Assembly (NCBI RefSeq): GCF_044647545.1
Contig: NZ_CP172818.1
Origin: Escherichia coli
GTDB lineage: Bacteria > Pseudomonadota > Gammaproteobacteria > Enterobacterales > Enterobacteriaceae
Length of the DNA: 64,000 nt
Direction: 5' to 3' (one strand)
In this document: in pieces, positions 5,321 to 64,000 of the stretch
Numbering within the stretch: the stretch's first letter is position 1
How the letters are laid out: every line of letters starts with the position of its first letter
Position numbers and translations under genes: made by a program
The notes under the pieces: model-generated
Told to the model about the DNA's origin: nothing
The model's database searches: none
The model's input: the letters and a program-made list of their open reading frames with translations, nothing else

Positions 5321-5323
5321 AGT

Positions 5324-5349: not shown

Positions 5350-5371
5350 TTCTCACAAAGCATCTTACCGA

Positions 5372-9528: not shown

Positions 9529-11542
<2,014 letters not shown>

Positions 11543-12033: not shown

Positions 12034-12296
12034 GCCGCGCGCCGCGTTTTATACCCCACAATGGCAGAAAATTGCAAAAGATAAATACGCAGAATGCCAG
12101 CATTGTCAGGAAAAATTTCCAGCCACGTTTTTAAAAGAATGAGACACGATTCAAAAAAAAGTGGAAATCGGGTGAAGAATTGACCTAAAATAGCCATCCA
12201 GATGTTAATCCATCCATACCGATTAACACTCAGACTGCCAGTGTTTTTAACCTGCAGAGTCGTGGTAGGATCCGCTACCACAGAAAATCCACACAA
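12030..12296 (-). CDS. yqgD: Small uncharacterised ORF, possibly YqgD
   Basis: 88 aa ORF overlapping the metK upstream region; weak. Confidence 0.3.
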
Positions 12297-12336
12297 CAGT
12301 TTGAGCTAACCAAATTCTCTTTAGGTGATATTAAAT

Positions 12337-13491: not shown

Positions 13492-13513
13492 TCTTTCTTC
13501 ACCTGCTTTCAAA

Positions 13514-13542
13514 GGCCAGCCTCGCGCTGGCCTTTTTCTTTT
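13514..13542 (+). terminator. Rho-independent terminator of metK
   Basis: GGCCAGC-CTCGC-GCTGGCC hairpin followed by TTTTTCTTTT. Confidence 0.8.
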
Positions 13543-13828
13543 ACCTCACCGCGGTGGATAGGCGTTCACGCGGCATCCGGCAAAAAGCTGCCCGCACAAT
13601 AACATCATTCTTCCTGAACACGTTTTACCGCAAATTATCATCGCTACTGAAACCGATTACACCAACCACACCAGACAAAGATTTGTAATATTTTCATATT
13701 ATTATTCGGTTTTCACAGTTGTTACATTTCTTTTCAGTAAAGTCTTAATTGCAGATAACAGCGTTTAATCTATGATGATATAACTCAATTATTTTCATGC
13801 ACTTAAATCATAACTAAGATAAATGTTA

Positions 13829-13844
13829 GTGTAAGCGATTACAC
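13829..13844. promoter_or_regulatory. Gal operator-like palindrome (GalR/GalS site) in the galP promoter
   Basis: GTGTAAGCGATTACAC, near-perfect palindrome matching the gal operator pattern. Confidence 0.6.
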
Positions 13845-13847
13845 TGA

Positions 13848-13863
13848 TGTGATTTGCTTCACA
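13848..13863. promoter_or_regulatory. CRP consensus site in the galP promoter
   Basis: TGTGA-TTTGCT-TCACA, full match to TGTGA-N6-TCACA. Confidence 0.6.
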
Positions 13864-13926
13864 TCTTTTTACGTCGTACTCACCTATCTTAATTCACAAT
13901 AAAAAATAACCATATTGGAGGGCATC

Positions 13927-24075: not shown

Positions 24076-25262
24076 TCATTAATGCCGCATGCGGCGTTAA
24101 TCACTTCTATAATAAATATAATTATATATTAAACATATATTAAAATAACACAACAATAATATTCTTCAATCAAAAATAAACAAAAACACACGATGAACCG
24201 AACAACATGCAAAAACAAATCACATCTCAAAAATTTATAACACTCTTCCCCTCCAACAACGAAAACAAAGAAAAATACGTTAAAAAACAAAAAATATCGA
24301 AACAGAAAAACGAAAAAAAAATAAAGTAATGAATCACCACACGAGAACAAGAAAAAAACAACAAAATATATACTAATAACACAGTAGGAAAGGAATAAGA
24401 ATCAACAAAGAAATTTTTACCATCATCAAACGATAACAAACAACCGAAGAGGGAGATAGTTGCCACACCGACACAGAACATCTCTCCACATCACAACAAT
24501 AACAGGTAGCGGAGCACCCCCAATAACCAAAACACAGACCCATACTTGACAACCAGAACAAAAAAACACAACGACAAAAACCAAACAACGAAGAATGAAA
24601 AATGATAAAGAAGAAATTGAATAATTAACACTATCACCCCTACATCAAACTAGAAAAGAAATCGTTGTTAGATATGCGCGGTGTGGTGGTCCTGTGATGC
24701 GCGAACTAGGCGTGACGCCTTTTCTGTCGCCGTCATGCTTGCTCTGGTTGTATGCGTAGTCTGATAAGACGCTCCAAACCACAAAAGCACAGCATCCCAT
24801 TCAGACCAAAGAAGGTTATGATTGCCGGCATTTTCTACCGCTGTCAACGTCTCATCTTGTTATAACTGGATTACTGATACCGCCCTCAAACGTGTTAATT
24901 GTTTTTCCCTACACTGCGCGTTTCTAGCACGCTATTAGCGGGATATGCAAGGGACTAAGAGTCGCGGTAAAAACCGGCATATCAAACGCGGCTACCCGCT
25001 TCAGAAAAAGCAACCTCCAGGCCTAAAGCGTTCGACCTACCAAGTTCTCGTCAAGGCGGCATCGGCGGCATTTTACGCAACGAAGGCCGATCTTCACAAT
25101 TATGATTACCGGGAATAAAATCGCGATTTACCCAAACGATCGAACGGTTACAAATAATTCGCACCGCAAACCAACAATCCAAAAACTAGGATTCAAACCC
25201 ACCAAATAAAAAAAAAAAAAAAAAGGAAAAACAAAAAAAAAAACAACAAAAAAAAAAAAAAG
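24076..25262. other. About 1.2 kb non-coding block with extreme A/C-rich, G/T-poor plus-strand composition, REP-like fragments and a terminal A-rich tract
   Basis: Composition read directly; only low-complexity minus-strand ORFs; ends in A-rich run 25205-25262 abutting the yggM stop. Confidence 0.7.
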
Positions 25263-25265
25263 AAA

Positions 25266-37143: not shown

Positions 37144-37154
37144 ATTCATAAGAA

Positions 37155-37182
37155 CCCGCCCACAAGGCGGGTTTTTGCTTTT
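37155..37182 (+). terminator. Rho-independent terminator of pheV
   Basis: CCCGCC-CACAA-GGCGGG followed by TTTTTGCTTTT. Confidence 0.85.
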
Positions 37183-37288
37183 GGATCTGACAATAACCTT
37201 CACGAAAAAAATTAGCTTATAAAGTCTGGGGGAATTACTCTCGCCACGTTAACGAGAGTAATTTTATTGATATTAATCTCCTGATACC

Positions 37289-37825
37289 TTACCCCCGTCC
37301 AAACTCCAGTCGCTGCACATTCACCATCCCAGGCTTCTCAGCAGCACTGACATCAATTTGTGTCACCCGCAGCGCATATTTTTCATCCAGTGCTTTTAAC
37401 CAGTTCAGCAGGTCATTAAACACCACAGGTTCTATCCAGACTTGAATATTCTCCCCACGCTCGGCTATCCGCTTGATGACCACCGAGTGCGCGGAAGCAC
37501 TGTCACTGATGACCCGCGATACCTGCGCAGGCGTTGTTGTGGCAGATTTTCGCGCTGCAATAATATCCGGCGCAGTGCTCTTCAGTCGCGCGTTCATCGC
37601 CACGAGCTGCTGCAACATCGTCTCCTGTTGCTCAATCCGTTCGCTCAACGGCTGCCAGATGACGACGTAATATCCGACGCTAAACAGGAACACCACCGCT
37701 GCCAGTAACATGCCCTTTTCACGCGGAGAACGCCCCGCCAGGTGTTGTGTCAGCCAGTGTTCGCCACGGCTTAACTGGCGTTCACGCCATTGCTGAAAAT
37801 AGTGAATAAATTTATCGCGTAACAT
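37289..37825 (-). CDS. yghD: Type II secretion GspM-like protein (cryptic)
   Basis: 178 aa ORF, position downstream of pheV. Confidence 0.8.
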   Translation of the reverse strand: MLRDKFIHYFQQWRERQLSRGEHWLTQHLAGRSPREKGMLLAAVVFLFSVGYYVVIWQPLSERIEQQETMLQQLVAMNARLKSTAPDIIAARKSATTTPAQVSRVISDSASAHSVVIKRIAERGENIQVWIEPVVFNDLLNWLKALDEKYALRVTQIDVSAAEKPGMVNVQRLEFGRG

Positions 37826-48266: not shown

Positions 48267-50438
48267 TTAATGACTTTCTTTTTCGCGTAAACGCCAGGCG
48301 TGTAATAACGGTTCGGTATAGCCGTTTGGCTGTTTCACGCCGAGGAAGATTAAATCGCTGGCAGCTTTAAAAGCACACGAGTTAGCGAAATTCCCCGCCA
48401 TCGGACGATAAGCCGGATCGCCAGCGTTTTGCTGATCAACCACTTTCGCCATATTCTCCAGCGACGCCTGCACCTGTTCTTTGGTCAGAATACCGTGACG
48501 TAACCAGTTGGCGATATGCTGGCTGGAGATACGCAACGTTGCACGGTCTTCCATCAGCGCCACATTGTGAATATCCGGCACTTTTGAACAACCAATCCCC
48601 TGCTCCACCCAGCGCACCACGTAACCCAGAATCCCCTGCACGTTGTTATCCAGCTCTTGTTGGATCTCTTCCACTGACCAGTTAGCGTTTTCAGCCACCG
48701 GAATAGTCAGCAGATCGTCCAGCAGCGGTTCAAATTCAGCATTGAACTCGCTCTGGGCAATGTTGGCTTGCACGCTCTGTACGTTGGTTTGGTGGTAGTG
48801 CAGCGCATGGAGCGTAGCGGCAGTTGGCGACGGAACCCAGGCCGTGTTTGCCCCGGCACGCAGTTGGTCGCCCTTCTGGCTGTACATGTCTGCCATCAGG
48901 TCCGGCATTGCCCACATGCCTTTACCGATTTGCGCTTTACCGCGCAGCCCACAGAACAGGCCGGAAAGCACGTTATTACGCTCGTAGGCTTTGATCCAAG
49001 GCGTCGATTTCATCTGATTTTTACGCAGCATCGGGCCAGCTTCCATCACCGAATGCATTTCATCGCCGGTACGGTCGAGGAAACCGGTATTGATGAACGC
49101 CACGCGGTTGCGCGCCTGAGCGATACAGCTACGCAAGTTCAGCGAGGTCCGACGTTCTTCATCCATAATGCCCATTTTCAGGGTATTCGGTGCCATACCG
49201 AGCATTGTCTCAATGCGGGTAAACAGTTTGTTGGCGAACGCCACTTCCTGCGGACCGTGCATTTTCGGTTTCACAATATAGACGCTGCCAGTGCGCGAGT
49301 TTTTCTGCACTTTTAAATCATAGAGGGCAATCGCGCCAGTCATGACGCCATCAAGAATGCCTTCCGGGATTTCATTGCCTTCGCTGTCCCAAATCACAGG
49401 AATAGTCATCAAATGACCCACGTTGCGGATAAACAGCAGCGAGCGTCCGTGCAGAGAAATTTCAGAGCCATCGGCGGCGGTGTAATGACGATCGTCATTC
49501 AGTTTACGCACGATTTGTCGACCGTTCTTCTCCATTTTCTCTTGCAGAGTCCCCTGCATCAGGCCCAGCAGGTTGCGGTACAGCAGGATTTTATCTTCCG
49601 CATCAACCGCCGCGACCGAATCTTCGCAGTCGAGAATAGTACTGATGGCCGCTTCGACGATAACATCGTTGATATGCGCCGGATCGTCTTTGCCAATCCG
49701 CCCGTTGGCATCAATTTGCAGTTCAATATGCAGGCCGTTATTTTTCAGCAAAATGCAGGTCGGCGCAGCGGCATCGCCACGGTAACCGACAAACTGCGCC
49801 GGGGTACGTAACGTGGTTTCTTTACCATTTTTCAACTGGATGCGTAATTGTTTATCGACCACCTTAAACGCCAGCACATCCTGATAGCTGCCGTTTTCCA
49901 GCGGTAGAGATTCATCGAGGAAACGCCGAACCCAGGCGATAACCTGCTCACCGCGCTGCGGATCGTAGCCGCTGACCATCGCCCCTTCCTGCGGGATGAT
50001 GTCGCTGCCGTATAACGCATCGTACAGTGAGCCCCAGCGAGCGTTCGCCGCGTTCAGCGCGTAGCGGGCGTTCATTGCCGGAACCACCAGCTGTGACCCC
50101 GCCTGGCTGGTGATTTCGCTGTCAATGCCCGTGGTTTCCACCGTCACGCGCTCCGGTTGTGGCACCAGGTAGCCCAGTTCACGCAGGAAAGATTTATAGG
50201 CCTCTTTATCTTTAACCGGCCCCGGATTGCTGCGATGCCACTCATCAAGCGCCGCCTGAATGCGATCGCGTTCTGCCAGCAACTGACGATTTTCTGGTGC
50301 CAGATCGTGAACGATCTCATCAAAATTGCGCCAGAACGCCGCAGTGTCCAACCCTGTTCCCGGTAAAACTTCTTCATCCACAAAACGTTTAAAATTGGCG
50401 TTAATGCGTAAACGGCCCTGGGTTATGGTTTGACTCAT
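48267..50438 (-). CDS. glcB: Malate synthase G
   Basis: 723 aa ORF. Confidence 0.96.
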
Positions 50439-50459
50439 TGTTTATCTCCTCGTTTTCGC

Positions 50460-50864
50460 TTATTTCGCCAACACCGCTGCTGCCACTTTCGCGACCTGCG
50501 CATCCTGTGCTCCGGTTAAACCAGAAACGCCCACGGCACCAATAATTTGCCCATCCACAACAACCGGTACGCCACCTTCCAGCGACGTCAGTAACGGCGC
50601 AGTCACGAACGCGGTACGTCCGTTGTTCACCATCTCTTCATAGCCCTTAGTTTCACGACGCCCCAGCGCGGCGGTACGCGCTTTCTCCTGGGAGATGTAA
50701 GCCGCAATCGGCGCGCAATCGTCCATGCGACTTAACGCCAGCAGATGACCGCCGTCATCGGCAACAGCAATGGAAACAGACCAGTTATTTTTCTGCGCCT
50801 CTTCCTGACCTGCGGCAATAATTGCACTCGCCATTTGCTGGCTAAGAATGACTTTAGTTTTCAT
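50460..50864 (-). CDS. glcG: GlcG (heme-binding-like protein of the glc operon)
   Basis: Start at MKTKVILSQQMASAIIAAGQ; 134 aa. Confidence 0.9.
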   Translation of the reverse strand: MKTKVILSQQMASAIIAAGQEEAQKNNWSVSIAVADDGGHLLALSRMDDCAPIAAYISQEKARTAALGRRETKGYEEMVNNGRTAFVTAPLLTSLEGGVPVVVDGQIIGAVGVSGLTGAQDAQVAKVAAAVLAK

Positions 50865-50868
50865 TTTG

Positions 50869-52092
50869 TTATTCCTTTTCAAGGGCTTGTTCTACAATTT
50901 CAATCCAGTGACGCACAGAGGTACGACCGGCGCTCGCCAGATGCGTCTGGCAACCAATGTTGGCGGTGACGATCATTTCCGGTTTGCCGCTTTCCAGCGC
51001 ATTCATTTTGTTATCCCGCAGCTGGCGCGCCAGATCGGGATGCGTTAACGCATATGTTCCCGCCGACCCGCAGCACAGATGGCTGTCGGGAACGTCCGTT
51101 AAGGTAAATCCAAGACGAAGCAACACTTTTTCCACTTCGCCGTTCAGCTTTTGCGCATGTTGTAGGGTACACGGGCAGTGGAAGGCCAGTTTTTTATCGC
51201 CGCGAATTGCCAGTTTTTCCAGCGGTTCCTCGCGCAGAAGTTCGACTAAATCGACCGCCAGCTCACTGACCTGACGCGCTTTATCGGCATATAACGCATC
51301 GTTTTTCAGCATCTGCCCATACTCTTTAACGAACGCGCCACAACCGCTGGCGGTTTGCAAAATTGCCTCGGCACCTGCTTCAATCGCGGGCCACCAGGCA
51401 TCAATATTATTTCGCGCCCGCGCCAGCCCTTTCTCTTGCGCATTAAGATGATAGTCCACCGCGCCACAACAGCCTGCTTCGTTAGCTGGCATGACGCTGA
51501 TCCCCAGACGATCCAGCACTCGCGCGGTTGCCGCGTTGGTGTTGGGCGAAAGCGTAGGCTGGGCGCAGCCTTCCAGCATTAAAACCCGACGCTTATGGCG
51601 CAGCGGTGGTCGCGGTTTAGCTTTCACCGTTTCGGCGGGCAGTTTTGCTCTGACCTGTTCCGGCAGAAACGGTCGCAGCACCAGTCCTACCTGCGTCAGC
51701 GCACGGAAGACCGCCGGACGCGGCACTACCTGGCGCAATCCTTCGCGCAGCATTCGCTCCGGCAATGGGCGTTTCACTTTCTGCTCGACAATATCACGCC
51801 CGATATCCAGCAAATTGTGATAGCGCACACCAGAAGGACAGGTGGTTTCACAATTACGGCAAGTGAGACAGCGATCGAGATGTTCCTGCGTTTTAAGCGT
51901 GACGTCGTTGCCTTCCAGCACCTGTTTAATCAGATAGATGCGCCCGCGCGGCCCGTCCAGTTCATCGCCCAGAAGCTGATAGGTTGGGCAGGTTGCGGTA
52001 CAAAATCCGCAGTGAACACAGGCGCGCAGGATGCTGTCGGCTTCCAGCGCGCGCGCGTTCTGCCGCATCTCTTCAGTTAATTGGGTTTGCAT
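50869..52092 (-). CDS. glcF: Glycolate oxidase iron-sulfur subunit
   Basis: Start at MQTQLTEEMRQNARALEADS; two CxxCxxCxxxCP ferredoxin motifs; 407 aa. Confidence 0.93.
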   Translation of the reverse strand: MQTQLTEEMRQNARALEADSILRACVHCGFCTATCPTYQLLGDELDGPRGRIYLIKQVLEGNDVTLKTQEHLDRCLTCRNCETTCPSGVRYHNLLDIGRDIVEQKVKRPLPERMLREGLRQVVPRPAVFRALTQVGLVLRPFLPEQVRAKLPAETVKAKPRPPLRHKRRVLMLEGCAQPTLSPNTNAATARVLDRLGISVMPANEAGCCGAVDYHLNAQEKGLARARNNIDAWWPAIEAGAEAILQTASGCGAFVKEYGQMLKNDALYADKARQVSELAVDLVELLREEPLEKLAIRGDKKLAFHCPCTLQHAQKLNGEVEKVLLRLGFTLTDVPDSHLCCGSAGTYALTHPDLARQLRDNKMNALESGKPEMIVTANIGCQTHLASAGRTSVRHWIEIVEQALEKE

Positions 52093-52102
52093 AGCCTGCT
52101 CC

Positions 52103-53155
52103 TCAAAGTTCCGCGTACATGCGACCGGGGTTAAACACGCCGCAAGGGTCGAGCTGCTGTTTAAGCTGCTGGTGATAGCGGAATAAAGGAGCCGGTAGCG
52201 GGGCAAAGCCACCATCTCCGGCACTAAAGCGGGTCGCATGACCGCCCGCGTTGCGGGCGATGCGATGGATTTGATTGTCATCGGCTGTCGATTTCAGCCA
52301 GTGTAGCGCCCCGCCCCAGTCGATCAGTTGCTCGCCGGGTAAATCTATCATCGGCGCATCGCTGGGTAAGGAAATGCGCCATAAGGTACCTGGTAACGAG
52401 AAGAACGGCAGTTGTTGTTCACGCAATTGCTGCCAGAACTGACCCGCAACCTCTTCGCCCCCCAGCAGTTCACGCGCTGCTTTTACCGATCCTTCGCCGC
52501 CCTCAAGGCGGATCCACAACGCATTGTCGAAGTAACATAAGCCACTAATGGGTAATGGCTGGAGTTGCCACTGGGCGATTTCATTCATGGCTTCTTGCAG
52601 GCTGATTTCCCGACGCAGACTCAGGGTGGCGCGTGGTCGCGGTAACACTTTCATCGAGATTTCAGTGAGCACACCAAGACAACCGTAGCTTCCGGCCATT
52701 AATCGCGAGAGATCGTATCCGGCAACGTTTTTCATCACTTCGCCACCAAAACGCAGATGTTTTCCAGTGCCGGTAATGATGCGCGTGCCGAGGACAAAAT
52801 CGCGGACCGAACCGCTCCACGGACGACGCGGCCCCGCCAGCCCGCAGGCGACCATCCCGCCCCAGGTGGCTTCTTCACCATAATGCGGCGGCTCGCAGGG
52901 GAGCATTTGCCCGGCGCTCTCCAGCGCTGCTTCAATCGCCACCAGCGGCGTTCCGGCACGAGCGGTTATCACCAGCTCGGTCGGGTCGTAATTAACAATG
53001 CCGCGATGACAACGCACATCTAGCGTTTGCCCGGTGACAGGACGACCTAAAAAGGCTTTGCTATTGCTGCCCTGAATCACCAACGGCGTTTTATCGCTAA
53101 TCGCCTGATTCACCTGCTCCAGCAGCGCCTGGCTGTAATCACACTCGCGTAGCAT
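52103..53155 (-). CDS. glcE: Glycolate oxidase FAD-binding subunit
   Basis: 350 aa ORF. Confidence 0.93.
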   Translation of the reverse strand: MLRECDYSQALLEQVNQAISDKTPLVIQGSNSKAFLGRPVTGQTLDVRCHRGIVNYDPTELVITARAGTPLVAIEAALESAGQMLPCEPPHYGEEATWGGMVACGLAGPRRPWSGSVRDFVLGTRIITGTGKHLRFGGEVMKNVAGYDLSRLMAGSYGCLGVLTEISMKVLPRPRATLSLRREISLQEAMNEIAQWQLQPLPISGLCYFDNALWIRLEGGEGSVKAARELLGGEEVAGQFWQQLREQQLPFFSLPGTLWRISLPSDAPMIDLPGEQLIDWGGALHWLKSTADDNQIHRIARNAGGHATRFSAGDGGFAPLPAPLFRYHQQLKQQLDPCGVFNPGRMYAEL

Positions 53156-54654
53156 CAGAAACGCTCCAGTTCAGGAAAAGGTAAATGACCGTGATGCACA
53201 TGCATGGCACCAAATTCAGCACAGCGGTGTAGCGTGGGAATGTTTTTCCCAGGGTTCAGCAAACCATCGGGGTCAAACGCCGCCTTGACCGCATGGAAGG
53301 TCGTGATTTCATCGCTGTTGAACTGGGCGCACATTTGATTGATTTTTTCTCGCCCGATGCCATGTTCGCCACTGATGCTGCCGCCAACTTCAACGCAGAG
53401 TTCGAGGATCTTCCCGCCCAGCTCTTCCGCGCGGGCAAATTCACCGGGTTCGTTGGCATCGAAAAGGATTAACGGGTGCATGTTGCCATCTCCGGCATGA
53501 AAGACGTTGGCAACACGTAAATCATATTGCTGCGATAAACGGGCAATGCCTTCCAGTACGCCAGGCAGGGCGCGACGCGGGATGGTGCCATCCATGCAGT
53601 AGTAATCCGGGGAGATACGTCCTACCGCCGGGAACGCATTTTTGCGACCGGCCCAGAAACGTACGCGCTCTGCTTCGTCCTGTGCCAGACGGACGTCAGT
53701 CGCGCCCGCTTTCAACAAGATGTCGTTAACCCGCTCGCAGTCTTCCTGTACGTCAGACTCCACGCCGTCCAGCTCGCATAACAAAATCGCTTCGGCGTCG
53801 ACGGGATAACCGGCATGAATAAAATCTTCCGCCGCGCGGATCGACAGGTTATCCATCATCTCCAGCCCGCCGGGGATAATGCCATTGGCGATGATGTCAC
53901 CAACCGCAAGTCCGGCTTTTTCTACCGAGTCAAAGCTGGCTAACAGAACCCGCGCCACGGGCGGCTTCGGCAGCAGTTTTACCGTCACTTCGGTGGTCAC
54001 GCCGAGCATACCTTCCGATCCGGTGAACAGCGCCAGCAGGTCAAAACCAGGTGAATCCAGCGCGTCCGATCCAAGCGTCAGTGCCTCGCCGTCCAGCGTT
54101 TGCACTTCAATTTTCAGCAGGTTATGTACGGTCAGACCATATTTCAGGCAGTGGACGCCGCCGGCATTTTCAGCCACATTGCCGCCAATGGAACAGGCGA
54201 TTTGTGAGGAAGGGTCCGGTGCGTAGTAGAGATTATGCGGTGCAACGGCCTGGGAGATCGCCAGGTTACGCACGCCTGGCTGCACGCGCGCGCGGCGACC
54301 AACGGGGTTAATGTCGAGGATCTCTTTAAAGCGCGCCATCACCAACAACACACCTTTTTCCAGCGGCAGCGCGCCACCAGAAAGCCCGGTGCCTGCACCA
54401 CGGGTCACCACCGGTACACGCAGGCGATGGCAGACAGCCAGAATCGCTGTCACCTGTTCCATTTGCTTAGGCAGAACAACCAGTAATGGACGCGTGCGAT
54501 ACGCGCTCAACCCGTCACACTCGTAAGGAATGATCTCCTCATCGGTATGCAGGATCTCAAGTCCAGGGACATGCTCACGCAGTGCCATCAGTACCGATGT
54601 GCGGTCGACATCGGGTAAAGCGCCATCAAGACGCTCTTCGTACAAGATGCTCAT
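53155..54654 (-). CDS. glcD: Glycolate oxidase subunit GlcD (FAD-linked)
   Basis: 499 aa ORF. Confidence 0.95.
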   Translation of the reverse strand: MSILYEERLDGALPDVDRTSVLMALREHVPGLEILHTDEEIIPYECDGLSAYRTRPLLVVLPKQMEQVTAILAVCHRLRVPVVTRGAGTGLSGGALPLEKGVLLVMARFKEILDINPVGRRARVQPGVRNLAISQAVAPHNLYYAPDPSSQIACSIGGNVAENAGGVHCLKYGLTVHNLLKIEVQTLDGEALTLGSDALDSPGFDLLALFTGSEGMLGVTTEVTVKLLPKPPVARVLLASFDSVEKAGLAVGDIIANGIIPGGLEMMDNLSIRAAEDFIHAGYPVDAEAILLCELDGVESDVQEDCERVNDILLKAGATDVRLAQDEAERVRFWAGRKNAFPAVGRISPDYYCMDGTIPRRALPGVLEGIARLSQQYDLRVANVFHAGDGNMHPLILFDANEPGEFARAEELGGKILELCVEVGGSISGEHGIGREKINQMCAQFNSDEITTFHAVKAAFDPDGLLNPGKNIPTLHRCAEFGAMHVHHGHLPFPELERF

Positions 54655-54904
54655 GAGTAGGCTTCGCTTTGTTGTGTTGTGTGGCAGCTGATTTTTGCGC
54701 GCTGCTTCTGTGAACAGTTATTAAGCGGGCTTTTCGTTTTCGTCTATCTCTTTAGCTACCGGTCAGACCATTTTTTTTCCAGCTCTGTGACCTTGTCTTG
54801 GTTAACTCAATGTTAAATTGATGTAACATAATCACTTACGTGATGTGCGTGTTTTGCGAGTTAAGAACAGAAAAATTGGTCCTACCTGTGCACGAGGTCC
54901 GGGA
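54655..54904. promoter_or_regulatory. Divergent glcD / glcC promoter region
   Basis: Intergenic between divergently oriented glcD and glcC; by position. Confidence 0.4.
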
Positions 54905-55669
54905 ATGAAAGATGAACGTCGCCCTATTTGCGAAGTGGTTGCAGAGAGTATCGAACGGTTAATTATCGACGGCGTACTGAAGGTCGGTCAGCCGCTTCCC
55001 TCGGAACGTCGACTGTGTGAAAAGCTCGGCTTCTCACGCTCCGCACTGCGTGAAGGGCTGACCGTGCTGCGCGGGCGCGGGATTATTGAAACGGCGCAGG
55101 GTCGCGATTCTCGTGTCGCACGGCTTAATCGGGTGCAGGACACCAGCCCGCTGATCCATCTGTTCAGTACGCAGCCGCGAACGCTGTACGATCTGCTCGA
55201 CGTTCGCGCATTACTGGAGGGCGAATCGGCAAGGCTGGCGGCAACGCTGGGAACGCAGGCTGATTTTGTTGTGATAACCCGCTGTTATGAAAAAATGCTC
55301 GCCGCCAGTGAGAACAACAAAGAGATTTCGCTGATCGAACATGCGCAGTTGGATCACGCTTTCCATCTCGCCATTTGTCAGGCTTCTCACAATCAGGTGC
55401 TGGTGTTTACGCTGCAATCATTGACCGATCTGATGTTTAATTCAGTGTTTGCCAGCGTAAATAATCTCTACCATCGACCACAGCAAAAAAAGCAGATCGA
55501 TCGCCAGCATGCGCGGATCTACAACGCGGTGTTGCAGCGGCTGCCGCACGTCGCCCAGCGCGCAGCACGCGATCATGTGCGGACCGTGAAAAAGAATCTC
55601 CACGATATCGAGCTGGAAGGCCACCATTTGATTCGCTCGGCGGTGCCGCTGGAGATGAACCTGAGTTAG
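54905..55669 (+). CDS. glcC: GntR-family transcriptional activator of the glc operon
   Basis: Start at MKDERRPICEVVAESIERLI; 254 aa. Confidence 0.94.
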   Translation: MKDERRPICEVVAESIERLIIDGVLKVGQPLPSERRLCEKLGFSRSALREGLTVLRGRGIIETAQGRDSRVARLNRVQDTSPLIHLFSTQPRTLYDLLDVRALLEGESARLAATLGTQADFVVITRCYEKMLAASENNKEISLIEHAQLDHAFHLAICQASHNQVLVFTLQSLTDLMFNSVFASVNNLYHRPQQKKQIDRQHARIYNAVLQRLPHVAQRAARDHVRTVKKNLHDIELEGHHLIRSAVPLEMNLS

Positions 55670-55675
55670 CTGGTA

Positions 55676-56950
55676 TTAAATCTGCTTTTCATACAATCGG
55701 TAACGCTTGTACGGCTCCGCCCCAATGCGTTCCAGCATGTTATTCATGCCTGTATTGGTTTCGAGGATCCATGACATCTCCAGCGCATCGATCTTCCGGC
55801 GGGCAAACGGATCGCGTAAGGCTTCAATCAATAACAGCGCAATCACCGGGCCGATGCGGCTGAACTGATACTCGTCGCGCACGCCCATCAGCGGTACTCG
55901 CGCAGTTCGCACACCGCTGACTTTCAAACGCCACAGCAATTTTGCCCAGCCGAAGGGAAAGAGCGATCCGTTCAGATCGGCAATCGCCTCGTTGATGTTC
56001 GGCAAGCCGACAATAAACGCGCAGGGTGCAGAATCAATCTCAGCGATATAGATCATATCGTCCGGCACCAGATATTTAAGTTGATCGCCCATGGTCGCGA
56101 ATTCATGTTCGGTAAACGGCACAAATCCCCAGTTGTGCTGCCAGCCAGAGTTGAAAATCTCACGCAGGATCTGCATCTCTTCGGCAAACCGCTGACGATT
56201 GATGCAGCGAATGGTCACCTTTTTGCGCACCTGATCCATCAGTTTTTTTAGCGCCGGAGAGAAAGTGAGATCGGTTCGCTGCATCCACCACGCCAGTAAA
56301 TCAATGCCTTTGTGATAACCCAGTTGTTCAATATGCGCGGCATACCACGGTTTGCCGTGTGGCATCATCGCACAGGGTGGTGTGTCAAAACCTTCAATCA
56401 GTAATCCGCTTTCCTGATTGATATTCAGGCTGAAAGGACCGCTGATCTTACTTGCACCTTGTGACTTCAACCACGCTTCCGCTGCGCCAAACAACGCGGC
56501 AAAAACCTGCGGATCATCAATGGCGTCAATCATGCCGAAATGACCGGTATCTTTGCCGTAACGCTCGCGGTGCAAGGTATCTATTTGCGCGGTAATACGC
56601 CCAACTATCTGCCCCGCTTTTTTTGCCACCCACGCCTGCCAGATGATATGGTCCGTCCCCGGATTTTTCGCAGACAAATGCTCGTTGCGTTCAATGAATA
56701 AAGGGGGTATCCAGTTTGGATCGTCGGGATAAAGTGATGACGGAAAAGCGATAAATGCCTTAAGGTCATTTTTATTAAAGACGTCGCGAAACTGAAGACA
56801 ACCGGAAATTAACTTAAAACACTCCGAACGAATTTTATAATAAAAAACGATCGCGTCATACCGAAACAATACGATTCGTAAGTTTTTTTCCATATCCTTA
56901 TCGCGTCCCTCATTCAATCGTTTTAAGCCAGGATCCCTGGTTAACGGCAA
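55676..56950 (-). CDS. yghO: YghO, uncharacterised protein (possibly GNAT-like acyltransferase); start uncertain (alternative ATG at 56893)
   Basis: 424 aa ORF in the expected position after glcC; fold assignment is a guess. Confidence 0.7.
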   Translation of the reverse strand: MPLTRDPGLKRLNEGRDKDMEKNLRIVLFRYDAIVFYYKIRSECFKLISGCLQFRDVFNKNDLKAFIAFPSSLYPDDPNWIPPLFIERNEHLSAKNPGTDHIIWQAWVAKKAGQIVGRITAQIDTLHRERYGKDTGHFGMIDAIDDPQVFAALFGAAEAWLKSQGASKISGPFSLNINQESGLLIEGFDTPPCAMMPHGKPWYAAHIEQLGYHKGIDLLAWWMQRTDLTFSPALKKLMDQVRKKVTIRCINRQRFAEEMQILREIFNSGWQHNWGFVPFTEHEFATMGDQLKYLVPDDMIYIAEIDSAPCAFIVGLPNINEAIADLNGSLFPFGWAKLLWRLKVSGVRTARVPLMGVRDEYQFSRIGPVIALLLIEALRDPFARRKIDALEMSWILETNTGMNNMLERIGAEPYKRYRLYEKQI

Positions 56951-57900
56951 TACGAACGATTCCTCACGTCCATTCGAACGATATCCCTACCTCCATACAC
57001 CTCCCACACCCTTTCCGGCTCATTATCACCCACCGAAGAGGCTAATCACGTCTATAACACGACGGCATTAAATTACCCGCGACCGCATCGCTCCTCTACC
57101 ATGAAGGGACGGTCGGCTTGACCCCCCCACGCACCATAGATTACGCACCAATCACTCCCCAAGCTTAAAGACATAAAAACCGGCACCTCCCCCGCCCATG
57201 AATTTCCACGCCCTGAATGAAAGAAATCCCTGAACTGGATCTTTCTCTGCGCGTCGCGGTATTTCAGAACCCATCTCCAGAACAGACTCTATCAATTTGC
57301 CATGCCCCACATTAACTATGATCATTCAACCCACGCATACAACGAATACATTTTAACCACCCTTTTAACATACCAACCGATTCCTCCACTCCACCGAAAA
57401 TTATACGCCTACCTCCATACACCCCCACACCGTTTCCCGTCATTACACCCACCGAACACCGAACACTCTATAACACACGCATTAAATACCCCCGACCCCT
57501 CTCCCCTTTCACCAATAATTCGGCTTTCTCCTGACCCCCCCACCACATAATTACATAATTTACTCCAATTAAAATCATAAAAAATCCGGCATTTCTCCTC
57601 TATGAATCCACTAATAAAAAATCTAATGGATCTCCCCTTACAAACACCCAAACAACCATCAATAATTTATTAAACAAACTCAACACAAAAATTCACTTTT
57701 ATGAACTCTTAACGAATATCCACACCAAACAGTAAACCCCTCAAACACGCCTATCGATTTTCCGTCAAGTAAAACTTTTGAACAGATTGAAAATCCGCAG
57801 TGAAGCATATCCGGCGCGGCGGAATTTAGTGCAGATGCTTCATCACTCCTCTCAACCTTTAACGAAATCCAATCTCAAATCAGTAAACCTCCCCGGTCAA
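56940..57900. repeat. Degenerate direct repeats in a G-poor, C/A/T-rich non-coding block
   Basis: Two diverged copies about 440 bp apart (from about 56940 and 57380) sharing the motif CGATTCCTC...CCTACCTCCATACACC...CACCCACCGAA...CATTAAAT; no coherent ORF. Confidence 0.6.
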
Positions 57901-58024
57901 AACGCCTATCACTTCTCAACTGCGGCAAAGCTGGAAATTATTAAATCCAGCACTGTGAGCGGTGTATGCCTTGGCGGAACAGTTTCGGTAAGCCACCTCA
58001 TCTCCGGTCCGTCTATGACTTACT

Positions 58025-58300
58025 TTGGCGACCAGTTCGCAAGCAATTGCCGCGACGGGCTGGTTAGACACCGGCGACCTCGGTTATCTGCTGGACGGTT
58101 ATCTGTATGTCACCGGACGCATTAAAGATCTGATTATTATTCGTGGCCGTAATATCTGGCCGCAGGATATTGAATATATAGCGGAACAGGAACCGGAAAT
58201 TCATTCTGGCGATGCGATTGCTTTTGTTACCGCCCAGGAAAAAATCATTTTGCAGATCCAGTGTCGGATCAGCGACGAAGAACGTCGCGGGCAGGTTTCC
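58025..58300 (+). pseudogene. Fragment of an acyl-CoA synthetase / AMP-binding enzyme (C-terminal region only)
   Basis: Translation ...GWLDTGDLGYLLDGYLYVTGRIKDLIIIRGRNIWPQDIEYIA... matches the conserved C-terminal region of adenylate-forming enzymes; upstream frame is lost. Confidence 0.6.
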
Positions 58301-58558
58301 CACCCCGCACGCGGCCAAAATGAAAATGGAGTTACCCCTGCTAGCGATTTTCGATCTCTCCACACCACACCCTTTTACGGCCCCTCCAACCCCACCCGTG
58401 CGCAAGCGGAAACACGTAAACATTAGCGTAGGCTTCTAGTCTCAATGTTCATGAACCCCAATCATTAATCAAACTGACACTGTGACGGTGGCGAGCGGTA
58501 CTAGCTTTAAAGGTATTAATATTATAACCTGCTCGCCCGCGGCTTTCACGTTCGCGCA

Positions 58559-58840
58559 TTGACGCGTACTGCCCGCGCTCACGTCAATGATAATCTCCCC
58601 TCGGTGGGGGGTTGGCTGCAGGATACTCATTCACTTAGCGAGCTGGTTGCCGGAGCCAGCGTAGTGGTCCATTGCGCCGGGCAAGTGCGCGGGACAAGCA
58701 CCACGCTAATCGACCAGTCTAACCTTACCAAGCACCAAAGAGAGCTGCTAGCGCCAACGGTGTCCGTTTTTTTCTACCCTTTTCTCTTTCTATCTTCAGT
58801 TCCCCCGTACCCAAACGCGCTATACTGCTCTGAGCAATGA
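58559..58840 (+). pseudogene. Possible fragment of an NAD-dependent epimerase/dehydratase or SDR
   Basis: Short VVHCAGQV stretch resembling the DxVxHxAA region of Rossmann epimerases; weak. Confidence 0.25.
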
Positions 58841-59764
58841 CAATCAGTAATGGCGGACCAAATGACGCTGGTGGTGGACCACCTTACAGTCGGCGTTTTT
58901 CCCGCGAAAAAAGTGTTTAAACCCCGCGTTGACGGGATGAAACCCCTCTTTCTGTGACTACTTGGCGCCCTACAGACACAGCTTTCTTTGCCGGATATCA
59001 CCCTTTTTTTTCAGCAGGTGACCAATTAAGCCGGAGAAGCGCCTCAATGATACAGACGCAAAAATACAAGCAAACCTATGAATTATGCGATGGCGTCGCC
59101 GGCGGCTATGACTGGCAACGCGTACAGCAACTTGCCGCCGACGCCCGTTGCGGTTCCCTGGATGGTGTTCATTGCCGGTACTCACCGGCCTTGCGGATAT
59201 CAGTACCGCGTTGAGTCGCCTGGCAGGTAAAGAACCTATGCTCTACCCGTCGAAAATTCGTGAATTAACCCACGCTACCTTTCGTCAACTTCTAACCCTG
59301 TTGTTGAAGATAGTTAGCCTGGTCCCCGGATTACCCAGCAAGACGTATTACTTAACTTGTTTTTTGGTCTGTCACGTTTATATGTTTAATAATGTAATAA
59401 TAATAAATTGTAAAATTTCCTTTTTACAGGATTTTGTCGATATAGTGTAGTTATTCCGAAAGAGGGGGATCTCGTAAGCGCTATAGCCATTGCGTCGATG
59501 AACGTGCTGGGACTCTTTCTAATGGTTGGAGCCCGTAACGATGTTTCCATACCGATTCATATTTTGATGGCTATTAATACCCCTGCGGATGTCATAACCA
59601 CTGTGCTATCATGGGTGGCGCTTCTATCATGGGGCTATAAGGTAGATGTGCGCGACTAGCTAGAGGGCGACTGCGCTTTCGAGCCACCGCATTTTAGCCA
59701 TTACGGGTTACTCACCTGTTTATGATGTTTATTTCCGCCACCGAAGGCCGGATCGGCAATAAAA

Positions 59765-60259
59765 ATGATATCTGGCCGGGACCGATTTTTCGGTTTTGTA
59801 ACCTTTAATCATGATGCCATAGGCGAAGGTCAGGCCGCGTTAGCGGCCCAAGGTACCGGCACCACCGGTTCTCGTATGGCAAACGGCAGTTATGCGCCGC
59901 ACCTGGCGTTAGAGAAAGAGATTGCCGAGTTTTTCAATCGCCCTACCGCTATCGTTTTTTCAACCGGTTATACCGCTAATTTAGGCGTCATCAGCGCACT
60001 TGCCGACCATAACGCCGTGGTGTTACTGGATGCCGACAGCCACGCCAGTATTTATGACGCCTGTTCTCTCGGTGGCGCGGAAATTATTCGTTTCCGCCAT
60101 AACGATGCTAAAGATCTGGAACGGCGGATGGTTCGCCCCGGTGAACGGGCGAAAGAGGCGATTATCATCGTTGAGGGTATCTACAGCATGCTCGGTGACG
60201 TTGCGCCGTTAGCGGAAATTGTTGATAAACATCTGCGTGTGGGTGATTTTTGTTTCTAG
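59765..60259 (+). pseudogene. Fragment of a PLP-dependent alpha-oxoamine synthase (BioF/Kbl/serine palmitoyltransferase family)
   Basis: Translation ...GTGTTGSRMANGSYAPHLALEKEIAEFFNRPTAIVFSTGYTANLGVISALADHNAVVLLDADSHASIYDACSLGGAEIIRFRHNDAKDLERRM... is typical of the family; N- and C-termini missing. Confidence 0.65.
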
Positions 60260-60849
60260 TAAGGCCCTTTGGTTTGCGTTGTAGGCGGAAAGGGGGGGCG
60301 AACTGCTTAAACTTGTCGGGGTTGAGGTTATTGTGATTTTTATCGTCGGCACCTTCAGTAAGTCTCTCCCCTAGTTTCGCTTTTTTTGTCTGGTTTCGAA
60401 AGAGGTAAAAGTGGTGCGATGCCACCCCCCCCCATATTTTTTTCCCCCCTCTCTTTCCCCCCCCTCGACGCGCCCGTGCCGTTAACAATGAGCGCCATAC
60501 CACCAGAGCCGGGGCAAAAGCTGATGGAGAAGGATAATCACCTGTATCACTGTGTCGATATACAAGGATTGGATTTTAGGTTACATATAAGTATTAGAGT
60601 GCTGGTAATAATCATAATCAAATAGGACGGGGTACGTATCCGGCTCTAGCGTGTGTTTCTTTCGTTGATCTTTTATGTGCATCTTATCCTCCCCCCTGCC
60701 GGGCATCACGCCGTCGCGCTGTACCCTAAAGCGTGCACACTGCTGAGAGTAGACAAATCGATGCCATCATTCAGGCATTTGCTACTCTGAAGCAGTAATG
60801 TGAGCCCGCCGTGGTGTTGCGCCACGGCGGGTTTAATGTGTTGTGTGAT

Positions 60850-62050
60850 ATCACTTACACCAGGCTCAACGCCACCAGCACAAACGCTATCGGTAAACCG
60901 AGCGCGGTAACAGGTGCGTCACGCAAATAGCAATCCCAGATTGACCATGATTTGATAGCTGATCCAGGTGAGTAAGCCAACGATGACACCTACAGCGAGA
61001 CGGCTACCCATCCCTCGGGAGCGCGGGGCGCTAAAAATAAACTGGACAGCCAGGAAAAATAACCCCAGGGGTAGGAATGGTTTCCCCAGTTTTTCCAACA
61101 TGGCAAGGCGTTATCCGTGGTGGGTTGCCCCGTTTCCTGGCAATTATGGGAGTTATGGATTAAGTGGAGGGACGGAAAATATATTCCCCCGTCGTTATAA
61201 CTTTTCAATTTTTATACGTGTAAAGCGCTTGCCCGGGGCAATTTTATGATATTTTCCGAGTGTTTTTGCGCCTCTCCCCTATTTTTTCTTTCACTATTAC
61301 ACCATGCAGGATCCACGTTTTGTCGTCTTCAATGGTGGCACTGCGTGCATAAATGTAGGATTCGAGCGAAAGATTACCACGAGATTGTAATATCTCTCCG
61401 CCCACAGGGGCTCCCCGTGCTTGTTGCGCGTTTACCGCGACAAATTTTCTACCCCGCCCCTCCCACAGCGCATTTTGGGGGTAGTGACCTCCTCCCCCCC
61501 ACGGCGCTGGCAGTCGATTTGATTTGCAGCGCCTGTTGCTGCAATGGCGACGCCACCCACTCATCTATCGCGCCTAACGAAACAGTCCACAATATCCCGG
61601 CAACCAGCGCCACCAGTGCAATACGGAAGATAGAAAACCCAGTGCTGCGAATGGCGGTAAGCTCACTGTTTTTCGATAACTGCCCCAGGCCAACAATCCC
61701 TCCCAATAATGCGATAAACGGCGAAAGTTCGACCAGTGTACGCGGTAAGGTCATCAGCACCACCAGCACCGCCTGAGTCCAGCGATAACCGCCCGGGCTG
61801 ACATCATCCAGTTCGTTAATCAGGTTGAAGGTGGTAAAAAGCGGCAGCAATAGCCCTGCGGCGGCGGCAAAACCGAGAAAGAGATGACGGATTAAATAGC
61901 GACTGAAAACGTTCTTCGGGAAAATTTCTGGAGCAAAGAGAAGTCGCGTGCGACCAGCATCAGCAGGCCCATTAGCATGAGTCCGGGTACTAACCACAAA
62001 CCAGGAAGGATGGGGACGCGTTTGCGCCCGTTAGCGCACTCGGCAGACGT
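60850..62050 (-). pseudogene. LptG-like (YjgP/YjgQ family) permease, frameshifted
   Basis: ORF 61449-61997 gives ...SRYLIRHLFLGF...LTAIRSTGFSIFRIALVALVAGILW...; ORF 60919-61101 matches the LptG C-terminus in another frame. Confidence 0.55.
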
Positions 62051-62981
62051 CGCCGCCATAAAAAATGGCAATAAACAGCAACGTCAGTGGCAATAACGTT
62101 GTAAAATCGCCCTTGCCGCGGTTTTACCCGACTTAATGAAATGGCCAGCAGCGCCATCAACAATGCGGTCAGGCCACGGCTTTGTCGCCATTGCAGTTCG
62201 GCATGATCGGCAGGAAAGGCGGAGCGCGCCAGCTCCGTGACCGATTTTGCTTTGCGTTTGACGTTAGGGCTTTGATCCAGCGGATTCAGATGTAATTGCA
62301 GATTACGGTAGATCTGTTCGTTGTCGTCACGCCCCTGATGATCGAGAAGATAGGCGGTGCCATTCAACAAAATGATCGTTGGTTAGTTGAGTGGTCAACC
62401 ACACCAATCGAACGGACGCGGGAAAAACGTGTGCGATCGGTAGGAGAAGGATAAATCAGTGCGTGAGTCAGTCGAGCATTTATTTTATTAACCGACCGTC
62501 AAAGGAACATTCGTTCGTTAGTTTTCGTTTGTATTTTATTTCTTCCCCAACAAGTGGAGATCCACCAGCTACGGCTACGGCTGTTCCAGCCGATAAAAAT
62601 TCTGAGAATCCCACGGCCGACGATCCAACGACGGAAGGGGGATAAAAATACTTATTGGTATTATCAGAAAATGAAGGGCGGCTTTCAACCGTCGCCCAGG
62701 GCCCCCCCCGAGAGAGAGCTGGAGGTTATTAGCGGGTAGATATCCGTCCGACCGAGAGTCCAACCGACAGATACATACCGACAGGCAAGTACATCCCCAT
62801 CGCGAGCAGTACGCTGTATGTAACGATCGCTATCCCGAACATCAAGAGCTAAGGTCCCATTTGCCGCTTCGGTCAGATAACGCTGTGCGGAGTAGCTGGC
62901 GAAAATAAAGATCAGAAAACCGACGATAATCAGCACCAGACGGCGCGTACCACGCATGATGTAGTGTTCAACCAGCTTCAT
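61990..62981 (-). pseudogene. LptF-like (YjgP/YjgQ family) permease, frameshifted
   Basis: N-terminus MKLVEHYIMRGTRRLVLIIVGFLIF (62981) and C-terminal ...ELQWRQSRGLTALLMALLAISLSRVKPRQGR (ORF 61990-62370) resemble LptF but lie in different frames. Confidence 0.55.
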
Positions 62982-63011
62982 CTCACTAACACCCTCAATC
63001 CTTTGAATTTT

Positions 63012-63573
63012 TTATTCATTGATCAGTTTCTGCGCCAGCGCAATGACATGATCTACCTCTTCCGGCGTCAGGCTGCCGTCCTTTGCCCACTGAATTTGCC
63101 CGTCTTTATTCAGCACCAGAATGGTTGAACTCTGCTCCGGCAACCGCCAGGCAACGCGTCCCAGTCCATTGCCGTCAATAACGAATTGCGCCCACGGATA
63201 GCGGCGTTTATTTTTTTCGATTTTGCCAACGACAAAATAGCCAGTACCAAAGATGGCATCATCGGTGTTCACAATGGTGGTGGGCTGAAAACGATCCTGC
63301 GGAAAGTTTGCCGCTTCAACCGCTTTAATTAACAGTGGCTTTTTTTTTTTCGCGGCCACTCACCCGGCGCTATATTCGGTATAACGCGGTTTTCCCCCGC
63401 GATGTGTGCTGTTCCCCACTTTGTGGTGTGTATTGTCGTCGCTCTATTCAGAAGGATCGCCCCGTTCCTGGGTATTAAACGGGGGTAACCGTTTTGCCAG
63501 TGACAAAATTGTGTGCCTGCACACCCTGGGCTAAGAGCATGATAATCAGCGCAATAATCAAACGAGATGACAT
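63012..63573 (-). pseudogene. YtfJ-family periplasmic protein paralog, frameshifted near homopolymer runs
   Basis: C-terminal ORF 63012-63359 (...QDRFQPTTIVNTDDAI...RRYPWAQFVIDGNG...VLNKDGQIQWAKDGSLTPEEV) and N-terminal signal peptide MSSRLIIALIIMLLAQGVQAHNFVTGKTV from ATG 63573 resemble E. coli YtfJ but are out of frame. Confidence 0.55.
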
Positions 63574-64000
63574 CATTGCTCCGGTTATAGCGGAAAACGC
63601 GAAATCAGCAGCTCTAAGCGCTGGCGAATATCGCTATCCAGCGCCACCGGTGCATTATACGACCGGGCGGTTTTCCTAATAATCCCCACCATTGTGGCCG
63701 TGTTTTCCCCCATCAGGCCATTAATGGCGGCGAGGAAGCGGGAAATCTTTTATTGCTTTTGTTTATCAAGCGATCTTAAGGTGTCGTAATAAGAAACCTG
63801 CTGACTGATGATTTTTCGCACATCATGAAATTCCCTGCCGGTTAGTCGCGGTTTGGCAATTATCTTTTCATGTGAATTATTTTTTTTCGATAAAAATAAA
63901 AAAACTTCCGATTTTTGAATTGGTAAGGCTTAATGAAAATTCCACCAAGGACAAGACCGAAAAGTTTAATAAAACCCTAAACAATTTCCCTTAAACCAAC

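Follow-up and report, generated by a model that had tools for sequence, protein, structure and literature searches.

The last 7 kb of the window, by which we mean the whole 64,000-nucleotide stretch of Escherichia coli DNA analysed here, raise the question of whether they hold the remains of a lost lipid-modification locus or a fault in the genome record. A preliminary description, drawn from the letters alone, had read them as a decayed lipid-tailoring island, while regarding an artefact as at least as likely. The pattern of the damage bears out that caution. As judged from sequence comparison, 56779-64000 is very probably a reconstruction artefact over the intact cluster of an ST131-type E. 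coli, and not a decayed island.

Results

The anomaly was confirmed, as was the statement that K-12-like synteny stops past yghO (collinearity with K-12 runs out at window 56790, whose K-12 counterpart is IS5, then yghQ), but the anomaly sets in earlier than 56951, at 56779, which falls within the 5' end of yghO. A long intact open reading frame is indeed lacking, the three longest in 56951-64000 being of 182 aa (61449-61997, minus strand), 176 aa and 164 aa. By tblastn, the acyl-CoA synthetase C-terminus noted at 58025-58300 proved to be that of a fatty acyl-AMP ligase, the alpha-oxoamine synthase core at 59765-60259 is the core of spt, and the possible epimerase fragment was recovered at ~58511-59333. 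The LptF-, LptG- and YtfJ-like genes described on the other strand correspond to minus-strand remnants at 60833-63573. The reported similarity of ~30-65% to the housekeeping copies agrees at its low end with the intact paralogues, which against K-12 show 28% (LptG) and 29% (LptF) identity and 47-51% positives. The list of fragments was sound but incomplete, the remnant of an acyl carrier protein gene having been overlooked (Table 1).

Table 1. Cluster features in the window from yghO to its end, and their state.
Feature	Position	Strand	State in the window
yghO (aca-type N-acyltransferase), intact part	55676..56778	-	100% identical to ECONIH1
Worst garbled block	56779..58056	.	~51% identity, global alignment
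aasR remnant (fatty acyl-AMP ligase / acyl-AcpR synthetase)	56989..58467	+	recognisable residues only 416-546 of 562
epi remnant (NAD-dependent epimerase/dehydratase family)	58464..59356	+	split among three frames
acpR remnant (specialised acyl carrier protein)	59382..59629	+	whole length garbled, 40% aa identity
spt remnant (serine palmitoyltransferase)	59629..60798	+	aligns over residues 1-390, divided between frames
lptG-like permease remnant (LptG2-type)	60833..61916	-	clean 60867-61020, 61309-61367, 61518-61915
lptF-like permease remnant (LptF2-type)	61913..62981	-	clean 61927-61999, 62053-62347
ytfJ-family remnant	63012..63573	-	clean 62849-63326, 63480-63649
274-aa hypothetical-protein gene, 3' part	63585..64000	-	partly garbled; runs past window end

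Each cluster gene is interrupted in the window, except for most of yghO. Garbled sequence replaces the first 13 codons of that gene (56779-56818), and this overwriting creates a spurious 424-aa open reading frame that extends to 56950. The worst block, strongly depleted in G and T, stands for 1,720 bp of ECONIH1, comprising the yghO 5' end, the intergenic stretch and all but the last quarter of aasR; ~5300-5823 of the ECONIH1 locus is present in duplicate, at window 56907-57300 and ~57330-57607. Base bias shifts along the region, with G and T depleted at 56779-58056 and later blocks leaning towards T or having no clear bias. The junk is a low-complexity sequence rich in A and C, and in three of the garbled segments terminal poly-A (A9, A35 and A17/A11/A14) directly precedes the return of shared sequence. 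Clean sequence survives in aasR at 58057-58283 and in the core of spt (59814-60213), the 5' and 3' thirds of which are garbled, the latter with C9/T7/C8 runs at 60425-60464. The lptF-like remnant is garbled at 62348-62848, with a C8 run at 62702, and the ytfJ-family remnant is interrupted by garbled sequence at 63327-63479 that contains a T11 run. In intact genomes, the 274-aa hypothetical gene precedes yghQ. The homopolymers singled out earlier are all present (C9 at 60425-60433, C8 at 62702-62709 and T11 at 63340-63350), but the errors extend far past homopolymer slips and amount, over 7.4 kb, to 937 substitutions and 331 indels.

The region after yghO aligns end to end, and collinearly, with an annotated intact cluster of ECONIH1, an ST131-type strain; the order of this cluster is that of E2863: yghO/aca, aasR, epi, acpR and spt, and, divergently, lptG-like, lptF-like, ytfJ-like, a hypothetical gene and yghQ. 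This yghO-adjacent cluster is intact and widespread, 3,452 of the 5,426 complete genomes of E. coli having at least 80% of it. The ECONIH1 products include a fatty acyl-AMP ligase (872 bits on NF006624, cut-off 600), a serine palmitoyltransferase (599 bits on NF047599, cut-off 500), paralogues of LptG (307 bits on TIGR04408, cut-off 240) and LptF (319 bits on TIGR04407, cut-off 230), and a YtfJ-family protein (216 bits, NCBIfam cut-off 151). In both ECONIH1 and E2863, acpR is an 82-aa acyl carrier protein gene whose end meets the start codon of spt; the NCBIfam acyl carrier protein matches of its product are weak, under the housekeeping cut-offs. The epi product is the presumptive keto-sphinganine reductase.

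The genetic marks of a sphingolipid cluster were all found, namely a proteobacterial-type Spt, an acyl carrier protein gene directly upstream of spt, and adjacent aasR, epimerase-family reductase and yghO. The LptF2/LptG2 type is likewise recognisable from a pair of LptF and LptG paralogues that lies inside the sphingolipid locus, separate from the housekeeping pair and without lptB; no LptB-type gene is annotated within the ECONIH1 cluster. The genes fit the amino-lipid or sphingolipid logic and the LptFG-type export proposed in the preliminary description, and both points are published (Padilla-Gómez et al. 2022, PMC9386255; Uchendu, Isom and Klein 2026, bioRxiv 10.64898/2026.04.12.717747). 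A match to a known yghO-adjacent E. coli cluster, named there as one part of the evidence that would count against a decayed island, was found for the underlying sequence. Going by gene content and order, the region is a scrambled form of the usual E. coli cluster for making and transporting sphingolipids, which had been characterised before.

How it is scrambled was judged from the distribution of the differences. Over the 4,457 bases that end at 56778 the flank does not differ from ECONIH1 at all (100.0% identity over 48000-56778), and beyond that point 100%-identical blocks, the longest of 478 bp, are interspersed with others of only 50-80% identity. The alignment is bimodal, with 2,673 columns at 99.55% identity and 5,250 at 64%; 41 of 148 bins of 50 columns are free of differences, against 0.004 expected, and the index of dispersion of differences is 6.9. 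The ratio of transitions to transversions is 0.51 overall and 0.48-0.62 within corrupt blocks, substitutions in the window copy fall on the three codon positions 325/288/321 times, and only 44 of its 331 gap openings are multiples of three. A natural pair of alleles, E2863 and ECONIH1, has a ratio of 3.03, codon-position counts of 27/10/91 and one gap. Natural decay would be expected to give an even spread of differences between similarly diverged flanks and an excess of transitions, neither of which was found: an overall divergence of ~17% lies beside a zero-difference flank of more than 4.4 kb. In the clean blocks the ECONIH1 allele is present at 52/52 informative sites.

The window carries ST131 sequence on K-12 gene order, with noise only where ST131 has DNA absent from K-12. 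It is collinear with K-12 in one alignment, 25263-56790, that includes the pheV-yghD junction and the gsp deletion; its alleles side with ECONIH1 against K-12 at 1,476 sites and with K-12 against ECONIH1 at 5, four of the latter within 16 bp of a structural junction. A stretch at 37189-37283 matches K-12 at 95/95 positions and has no ECONIH1 counterpart. The ST131-specific segments kept in the window are garbled or shortened in four cases out of four, each being absent from K-12, and the 8-kb gsp segment (gspD-K) and the pheV island are wholly missing, with K-12's exact junctions, not garbled. Window, ECONIH1 and K-12 part at one same base, the first of K-12 IS5LO (window break 56779). The anomalies thus sit at structural differences between sample and template, and template-only sequence and template alleles occur at junctions, as expected of a template artefact. 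Because the damage starts exactly at the base where the K-12 structure differs, and is bimodal, without mutational or codon bias and over the allele of the flank, the decayed island proposed earlier is not supported.

The scrambled form was not found in relatives: of the 5,426 complete genomes, the closest matched at 84.9%. The broken open reading frames occur once among ~15 billion proteins; the seven found, three of them single-member clusters, all lie on one NCBI contig of 4,499,902 bp, and two have RefSeq protein accessions (WP_400164856.1 and WP_400164855.1). We take this contig to be too small for an ST131-type chromosome. A sensitive search of the 5,426 genomes with 56779-57950 gave a best identity of 68.8%, solely to the acyl-AMP ligase gene. 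The idea that the first 1.1 kb (56779-57915) might be a foreign element was rejected, as this part aligns only to aasR, poorly and with part of aasR doubled. A divergent allele acquired by recombination was also discarded, since the clean blocks carry the ECONIH1 allele, the divergent blocks are full of frameshifts and the sensitive search gave nothing closer.

Discussion

The garbling would be computational or sequencing noise that entered as the genome record was made, and the template of the reconstruction was probably a K-12-like reference. The record would have been built on such a scaffold, with reads made into a consensus along it, and inserts relative to the scaffold would have been filled from very poor or sparse data and then partly repaired; junk broken up by perfect blocks would be the outcome. 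In the real organism, an intact cluster is to be expected. Some observations sit uneasily with a template artefact. A simple reference consensus would normally drop a 7-kb insert rather than copy it noisily, so an extra gap-filling or local-assembly step must be assumed; a template artefact does not of itself account for the outright absence of the gsp segment and the pheV island where other inserts are garbled; and no specific tool that we can name would produce the poly-A tails, the junk rich in A and C or the doubled part of aasR.

The best placed of the other readings, although improbable, is a generic low-quality stretch of de novo long-read assembly (unpolished or single-read, with homopolymer errors) made without a reference template. 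The region is rich in indels and its homopolymers are inflated, with 16 runs of at least 7 bases in the window copy versus 3 in the true sequence, 15 of the 16 within corrupt blocks, and a patchwork of repaired and unrepaired sequence might be expected if a noisy draft had been polished incompletely with short reads. However, this reading leaves unexplained why all four noisy segments fall at DNA that K-12 lacks, why the pheV island and gspD-K were lost with the exact junctions of K-12, and why junctions have K-12 alleles and a 95-base stretch found only in K-12; moreover, blocks of 50-65% identity are poorer than raw long-read error would make them.

Less probable again is an origin in silico, in which simulated corruption or a generative or imputing model, and not reads, filled the non-reference segments. 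The low-complexity A/C-rich junk, the terminal poly-A of three garbled segments, the random-like transition/transversion ratio of ~0.5 and the emission of part of aasR in duplicate all suit it. Against it, identical broken reading frames in an NCBI genome with RefSeq accessions mean that the corruption was not added to the window afterwards, and the exact strain-specific allele in the clean blocks points to real strain data. This reading overlaps with a template-based reconstruction, from which only the noise-making step differs.

Genuine pseudogenisation, that is, an old and neutrally decaying copy of the lipid cluster in the isolate, is scarcely credible. It would account for the lack of any reading frame above 182 aa in 7 kb, the interruption of all cluster genes and the presence of the broken frames in a public NCBI record, two of them with RefSeq protein accessions. 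Going by the pattern of differences, it is already contradicted: the divergence and the 331 indels adjoin an unchanged flank, perfect and poor blocks alternate, the transition/transversion ratio is far under that of two natural E. coli alleles, the clean blocks keep the allele of the flank, the first damaged base is the one at which K-12 has its IS5 insertion, and the forms are seen in no other genome or protein record among those searched. That the scrambled DNA is real, through localised, strand-asymmetric and indel-rich hypermutation or error-prone resynthesis of exactly the accessory segments, is every bit as hard to believe; it also needs an ST131-type chromosome that lacks the pheV island and gspD-K at the breakpoints of K-12.

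The relevance of a reconstruction artefact at this locus is to the quality control of public genomes and not to biology. A public E. coli record appears to contain junk at each structural difference between the strain and K-12, and to lack the true accessory genome of that strain. Anyone who trusted it would infer false pseudogenes and singleton protein families, as well as false losses of the pheV island, type II secretion genes and a TRAP transporter. The underlying E. coli cluster, with its genes for sphingolipid synthesis and LptF2/G2-type transport, is a real and common one that earlier work has described, and the window sequence adds no new information on natural sphingolipid production or export by E. 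coli.

Comparison with known systems

In K-12 MG1655 (yghO-IS5-yghQ), the whole cluster between yghO and yghQ has been lost and IS5 is there; the window keeps to the structure of K-12 as far as the base at which IS5LO starts and then has a noisy copy of the cluster, without IS5.

In Caulobacter crescentus, LptF2/LptG2 are needed for sphingolipid transport, and many sphingolipid loci of alpha- and gammaproteobacteria contain LptF/LptG paralogues, according to the passages of the preprint considered here, in which the transport requirement and the interaction with LptB are shown for Caulobacter only (Uchendu, Isom and Klein 2026). As in Caulobacter, the LptF and LptG paralogues of E. coli, a putative sphingolipid transporter, lie inside a sphingolipid locus without lptB. 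The E. coli locus differs in having an extra YtfJ-family protein, a hypothetical protein and the MOP-flippase-like YghQ, whereas an LptC-like gene appears, in those preprint passages, for Caulobacter only; the term 'YtfJ' is absent from the preprint text.

The E. coli B-strain cluster comprises yghO/aca (ECD_02850), aasR (ECD_02851), epi (ECD_02852), acpR (ECD_02853) and spt (ECD_02854), with yghO assigned as aca, and co-expression of the BL21(DE3) trio aasR/acpR/spt produced 3-oxo-sphinganine (Padilla-Gómez et al. 2022). From the literature, AasR would put a fatty acid on AcpR, Spt would join acyl-AcpR and serine to give 3-oxo-sphinganine, and the epimerase-family reductase and the YghO N-acyltransferase would finish the dihydroceramide, which the LptF/LptG paralogues may carry towards the outer membrane, probably powered by the housekeeping LptB. 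This Rhodobacteria-type dihydroceramide/sphingolipid cluster of E. coli B occupies the same site beside glcC-yghO as that in the window, and shares its gene order with the intact ECONIH1 and E2863 copies. By contrast, the window genes, most of yghO excepted, are broken by noise, and because this breakage would be technical, the window copy would not represent a separate variant of the cluster.

Gene remnants after yghO

No ORF between yghO and the end of the window is longer than 182 aa, with the next two at 176 and 164 aa, which agrees with the preliminary description of this region as having no intact long ORF. The positions it gave for gene fragments were confirmed by tblastn with intact proteins and the three homopolymer runs it listed are present, while an acyl carrier protein remnant had been overlooked.

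Features of the window after yghO and in other segments where the ST131-type strain ECONIH1 has DNA that K-12 lacks
Position	Strand	Feature	Remark
58031-58417		fatty acyl-AMP ligase C-terminus	tblastn, intact protein as query
58511-59333		epimerase-family gene	tblastn, intact protein as query
59382-59629		acyl carrier protein remnant	
59629-60795		spt	tblastn, intact protein as query
60882-61913	minus	lptG-like	tblastn
61916-62981	minus	lptF-like	tblastn
63015-63573	minus	ytfJ-like	tblastn
60425-60433		C9 run	
62702-62709		C8 run	
63340-63350		T11 run	
4833-5311		prohibitin-family gene between cmtB and tkt in ECONIH1	garbled, 486 bp missing
9476-9565		90 bases of junk, A35 at end	for ~900 bp of ECONIH1
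about 24101-25265		~1.16 kb of A/C-rich low-complexity junk	for 3.2-kb TRAP transporter cluster

A megablast search of 5,426 complete E. coli genomes with 56951-64000 matched 4,184 of them, with query coverage of at least 80% in 3,452, all at only ~85% identity. In ECONIH1 (NZ_CP009859.1) the corresponding stretch is intact and fully annotated, with the gene order yghO, fatty acyl-AMP ligase, NAD-dependent epimerase/dehydratase, acyl carrier protein and spt and then, divergently transcribed, lptG, lptF, a YtfJ-family gene, a hypothetical protein, a yghQ-type flippase-like protein and yghR/S/T. The bovine strain E2863 has the same arrangement, also intact. The intact fatty acyl-AMP ligase, serine palmitoyltransferase, LptG, LptF and YtfJ proteins score above NCBIfam cut-offs, and identity to the housekeeping proteins of K-12 is 29% for the LptF-like and 28% for the LptG-like protein. 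Beyond the window end (11742-13915 of the ECONIH1 locus), the lptG/lptF/ytfJ-like operon of intact genomes extends to a 274-aa protein without an NCBIfam match and a 449-aa MOP-flippase-like YghQ, after which come the P-loop proteins YghR/S/T.

Pattern of damage

The flank at 48000-56778 is 100.0% identical to ECONIH1, and the 4,457 bases preceding 56779 contain no mismatch to it. From 56779 the global alignment consists of near-perfect blocks (2,673 columns in total at 99.55% identity, single blocks reaching 478 bp at 100%) and corrupt blocks at 50-80% identity (5,250 columns in total at 64%). Junk blocks include 56779-58056, 58284-58533, 58684-59082, 59262-59741, 60214-60766 and 62348-62848. 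Differences counted in fifty-column bins have an index of dispersion of 6.9, and 41 of the 148 bins have none, compared to 0.004 expected under random placement. The 937 substitutions show a transition/transversion ratio of 0.51, as random base replacement would give, and are spread over codon positions 1/2/3 as 325/288/321; of 331 gap openings only 44 are multiples of three. The natural baseline for the same genes, E2863 versus ECONIH1, is 129 substitutions with a ratio of 3.03 and a distribution of 27/10/91 over the codon positions, and a single gap. There is also a strand asymmetry, as G, T, A and C of the reference are changed or deleted at 66, 43, 19 and 23%, respectively, in 56779-58056, and ECONIH1 locus positions ~5300-5823 appear twice in the window. 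Of the sites that distinguish ECONIH1 from E2863, the window has the ECONIH1 base at 52 of 52 in the near-perfect blocks and still at 48 of 70 in the corrupt blocks. Based on the flank, the bimodality, the substitution spectrum and the allele sites, the underlying sequence is the allele seen in the perfect flank, overlaid with noise. The proposal of a decayed lipid-tailoring island is therefore rejected on the perfect flank, the bimodal blocks, the ratio of 0.51 and the invariant ECONIH1 allele at clean sites.

The onset of the anomaly lies within the first 13 codons of yghO. The preliminary description was right that K-12-like synteny ends after yghO: the stretch collinear with K-12 (MG1655) runs to 56790, where K-12 has the IS5 copy IS5LO and then a truncated yghQ, but the anomaly starts at 56779 and not 56951. 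The window, ECONIH1 and K-12 are all identical through ...TTTTTATTAA, and the next base, the first of IS5LO in K-12, is the point from which all three diverge. The 424-aa "yghO" ORF at 55676-56950 is a chimera in which the residues encoded at 56779-56950 are translated from junk; authentic YghO has 380 aa, with its start at 56818. YghO (aca) is an N-acyltransferase and a member of the sphingolipid cluster rather than its mere border (PMC9386255).

K-12-like structure with ST131-type sequence

Window positions 25263-56790 align to K-12 as one collinear alignment that includes the direct pheV-yghD junction and the yghE/yghF deletion of gspD-K. Over the 52,031 positions that align to both references, the window shares its base with ECONIH1 but not K-12 at 1,476 and with K-12 but not ECONIH1 at five. 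Four of these five (24085, 24089, 24096 and 37290) are no more than 16 bp from a structural junction and look like residual reference bias. At 37150-37290 yghD comes directly after pheV, which is the K-12 order, and the pheV island and capsule region, which span almost 90 kb between these genes in ECONIH1 by record coordinates, are absent; within this junction 37189-37283 is identical to K-12 at 95 of 95 positions, for which the ECONIH1 loci compared offer no counterpart, and the flanks carry ST131 alleles. At 38787-38791, in the type II secretion operon, the 5' part of gspL is fused to gspC in ST131-type surroundings, and the loss of gspD-K there is probably another template effect rather than a real deletion. 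No complete genome among the 5,426 ranked above structurally K-12-like genomes at 97-98% identity, which we take to mean that none joins ST131-level identity to the K-12-like structure of the window.

The gsp segment and pheV island were dropped cleanly. In contrast, wherever ECONIH1 has DNA absent from K-12 and the window keeps any of it, that DNA is garbled and shortened (four segments, including that from 56779 onwards). The garbled segments are A/C-rich junk, three of which end in poly-A just ahead of shared sequence. In the prohibitin segment identity to ECONIH1 is perfect ~257 bp into the insert and is followed by noise rich in A/T runs, with A9 directly before perfect sequence returns at 5312. 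The segment ending in A35 stands for a region of ECONIH1 with a 732-bp hypothetical gene, which is flanked by speB and speA and missing from K-12. In the junk replacing the TRAP transporter cluster, located between hemW and yggM in ECONIH1 and absent from K-12, only 24788-25032 is alignable, at 80% identity, and A17, A11 and A14 runs occur at its end.

Seven of eight broken ORFs tried had exact matches, in every case on a single NCBI contig (4,499,902 bp), and are real entries of the public record; two have RefSeq accessions (WP_400164856.1 and WP_400164855.1) and three of the seven form single-member protein clusters. As an ST131-type chromosome is usually >5 Mb, a length of 4.5 Mb is consistent with a genome that retains little beyond its template-shared DNA.

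Origin of the damage and function of the locus

Judged from sequence comparison, the damage in the sphingolipid cluster is very probably an artefact and not biological, which bears out, more strongly and in more detail, the alternative offered in the preliminary description. The pattern across the window suggests reconstruction on a K-12-like template, in which inserts foreign to the template would have been filled from poor data. A plain reference consensus would leave out a 7-kb insert rather than copy it with noise, so this reading also requires some step of gap filling or local assembly; a generative or imputing step is an unlikely alternative source of the junk. The choice among these bears on the technical step at fault and leaves the non-biological reading of the feature unaffected.

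The identification of the genes and the functional logic proposed for them, an acyl-activating enzyme, a serine palmitoyltransferase and LptFG-type export, are correct but not new, as both are already in print. The locus was described in E. coli BL21(DE3) by Padilla-Gómez et al. 2022 (PMC9386255) as yghO/aca (ECD_02850), aasR (ECD_02851), epi (ECD_02852), acpR (ECD_02853) and spt (ECD_02854); co-expression of E. coli AasR, AcpR and Spt gave 3-oxo-sphinganine, and acyl-AcpR is the preferred Spt substrate. In Caulobacter, according to a preprint (bioRxiv 10.64898/2026.04.12.717747), the LptF/LptG paralogues of the sphingolipid locus are required when sphingolipids are made, form a complex and bind the housekeeping LptB.
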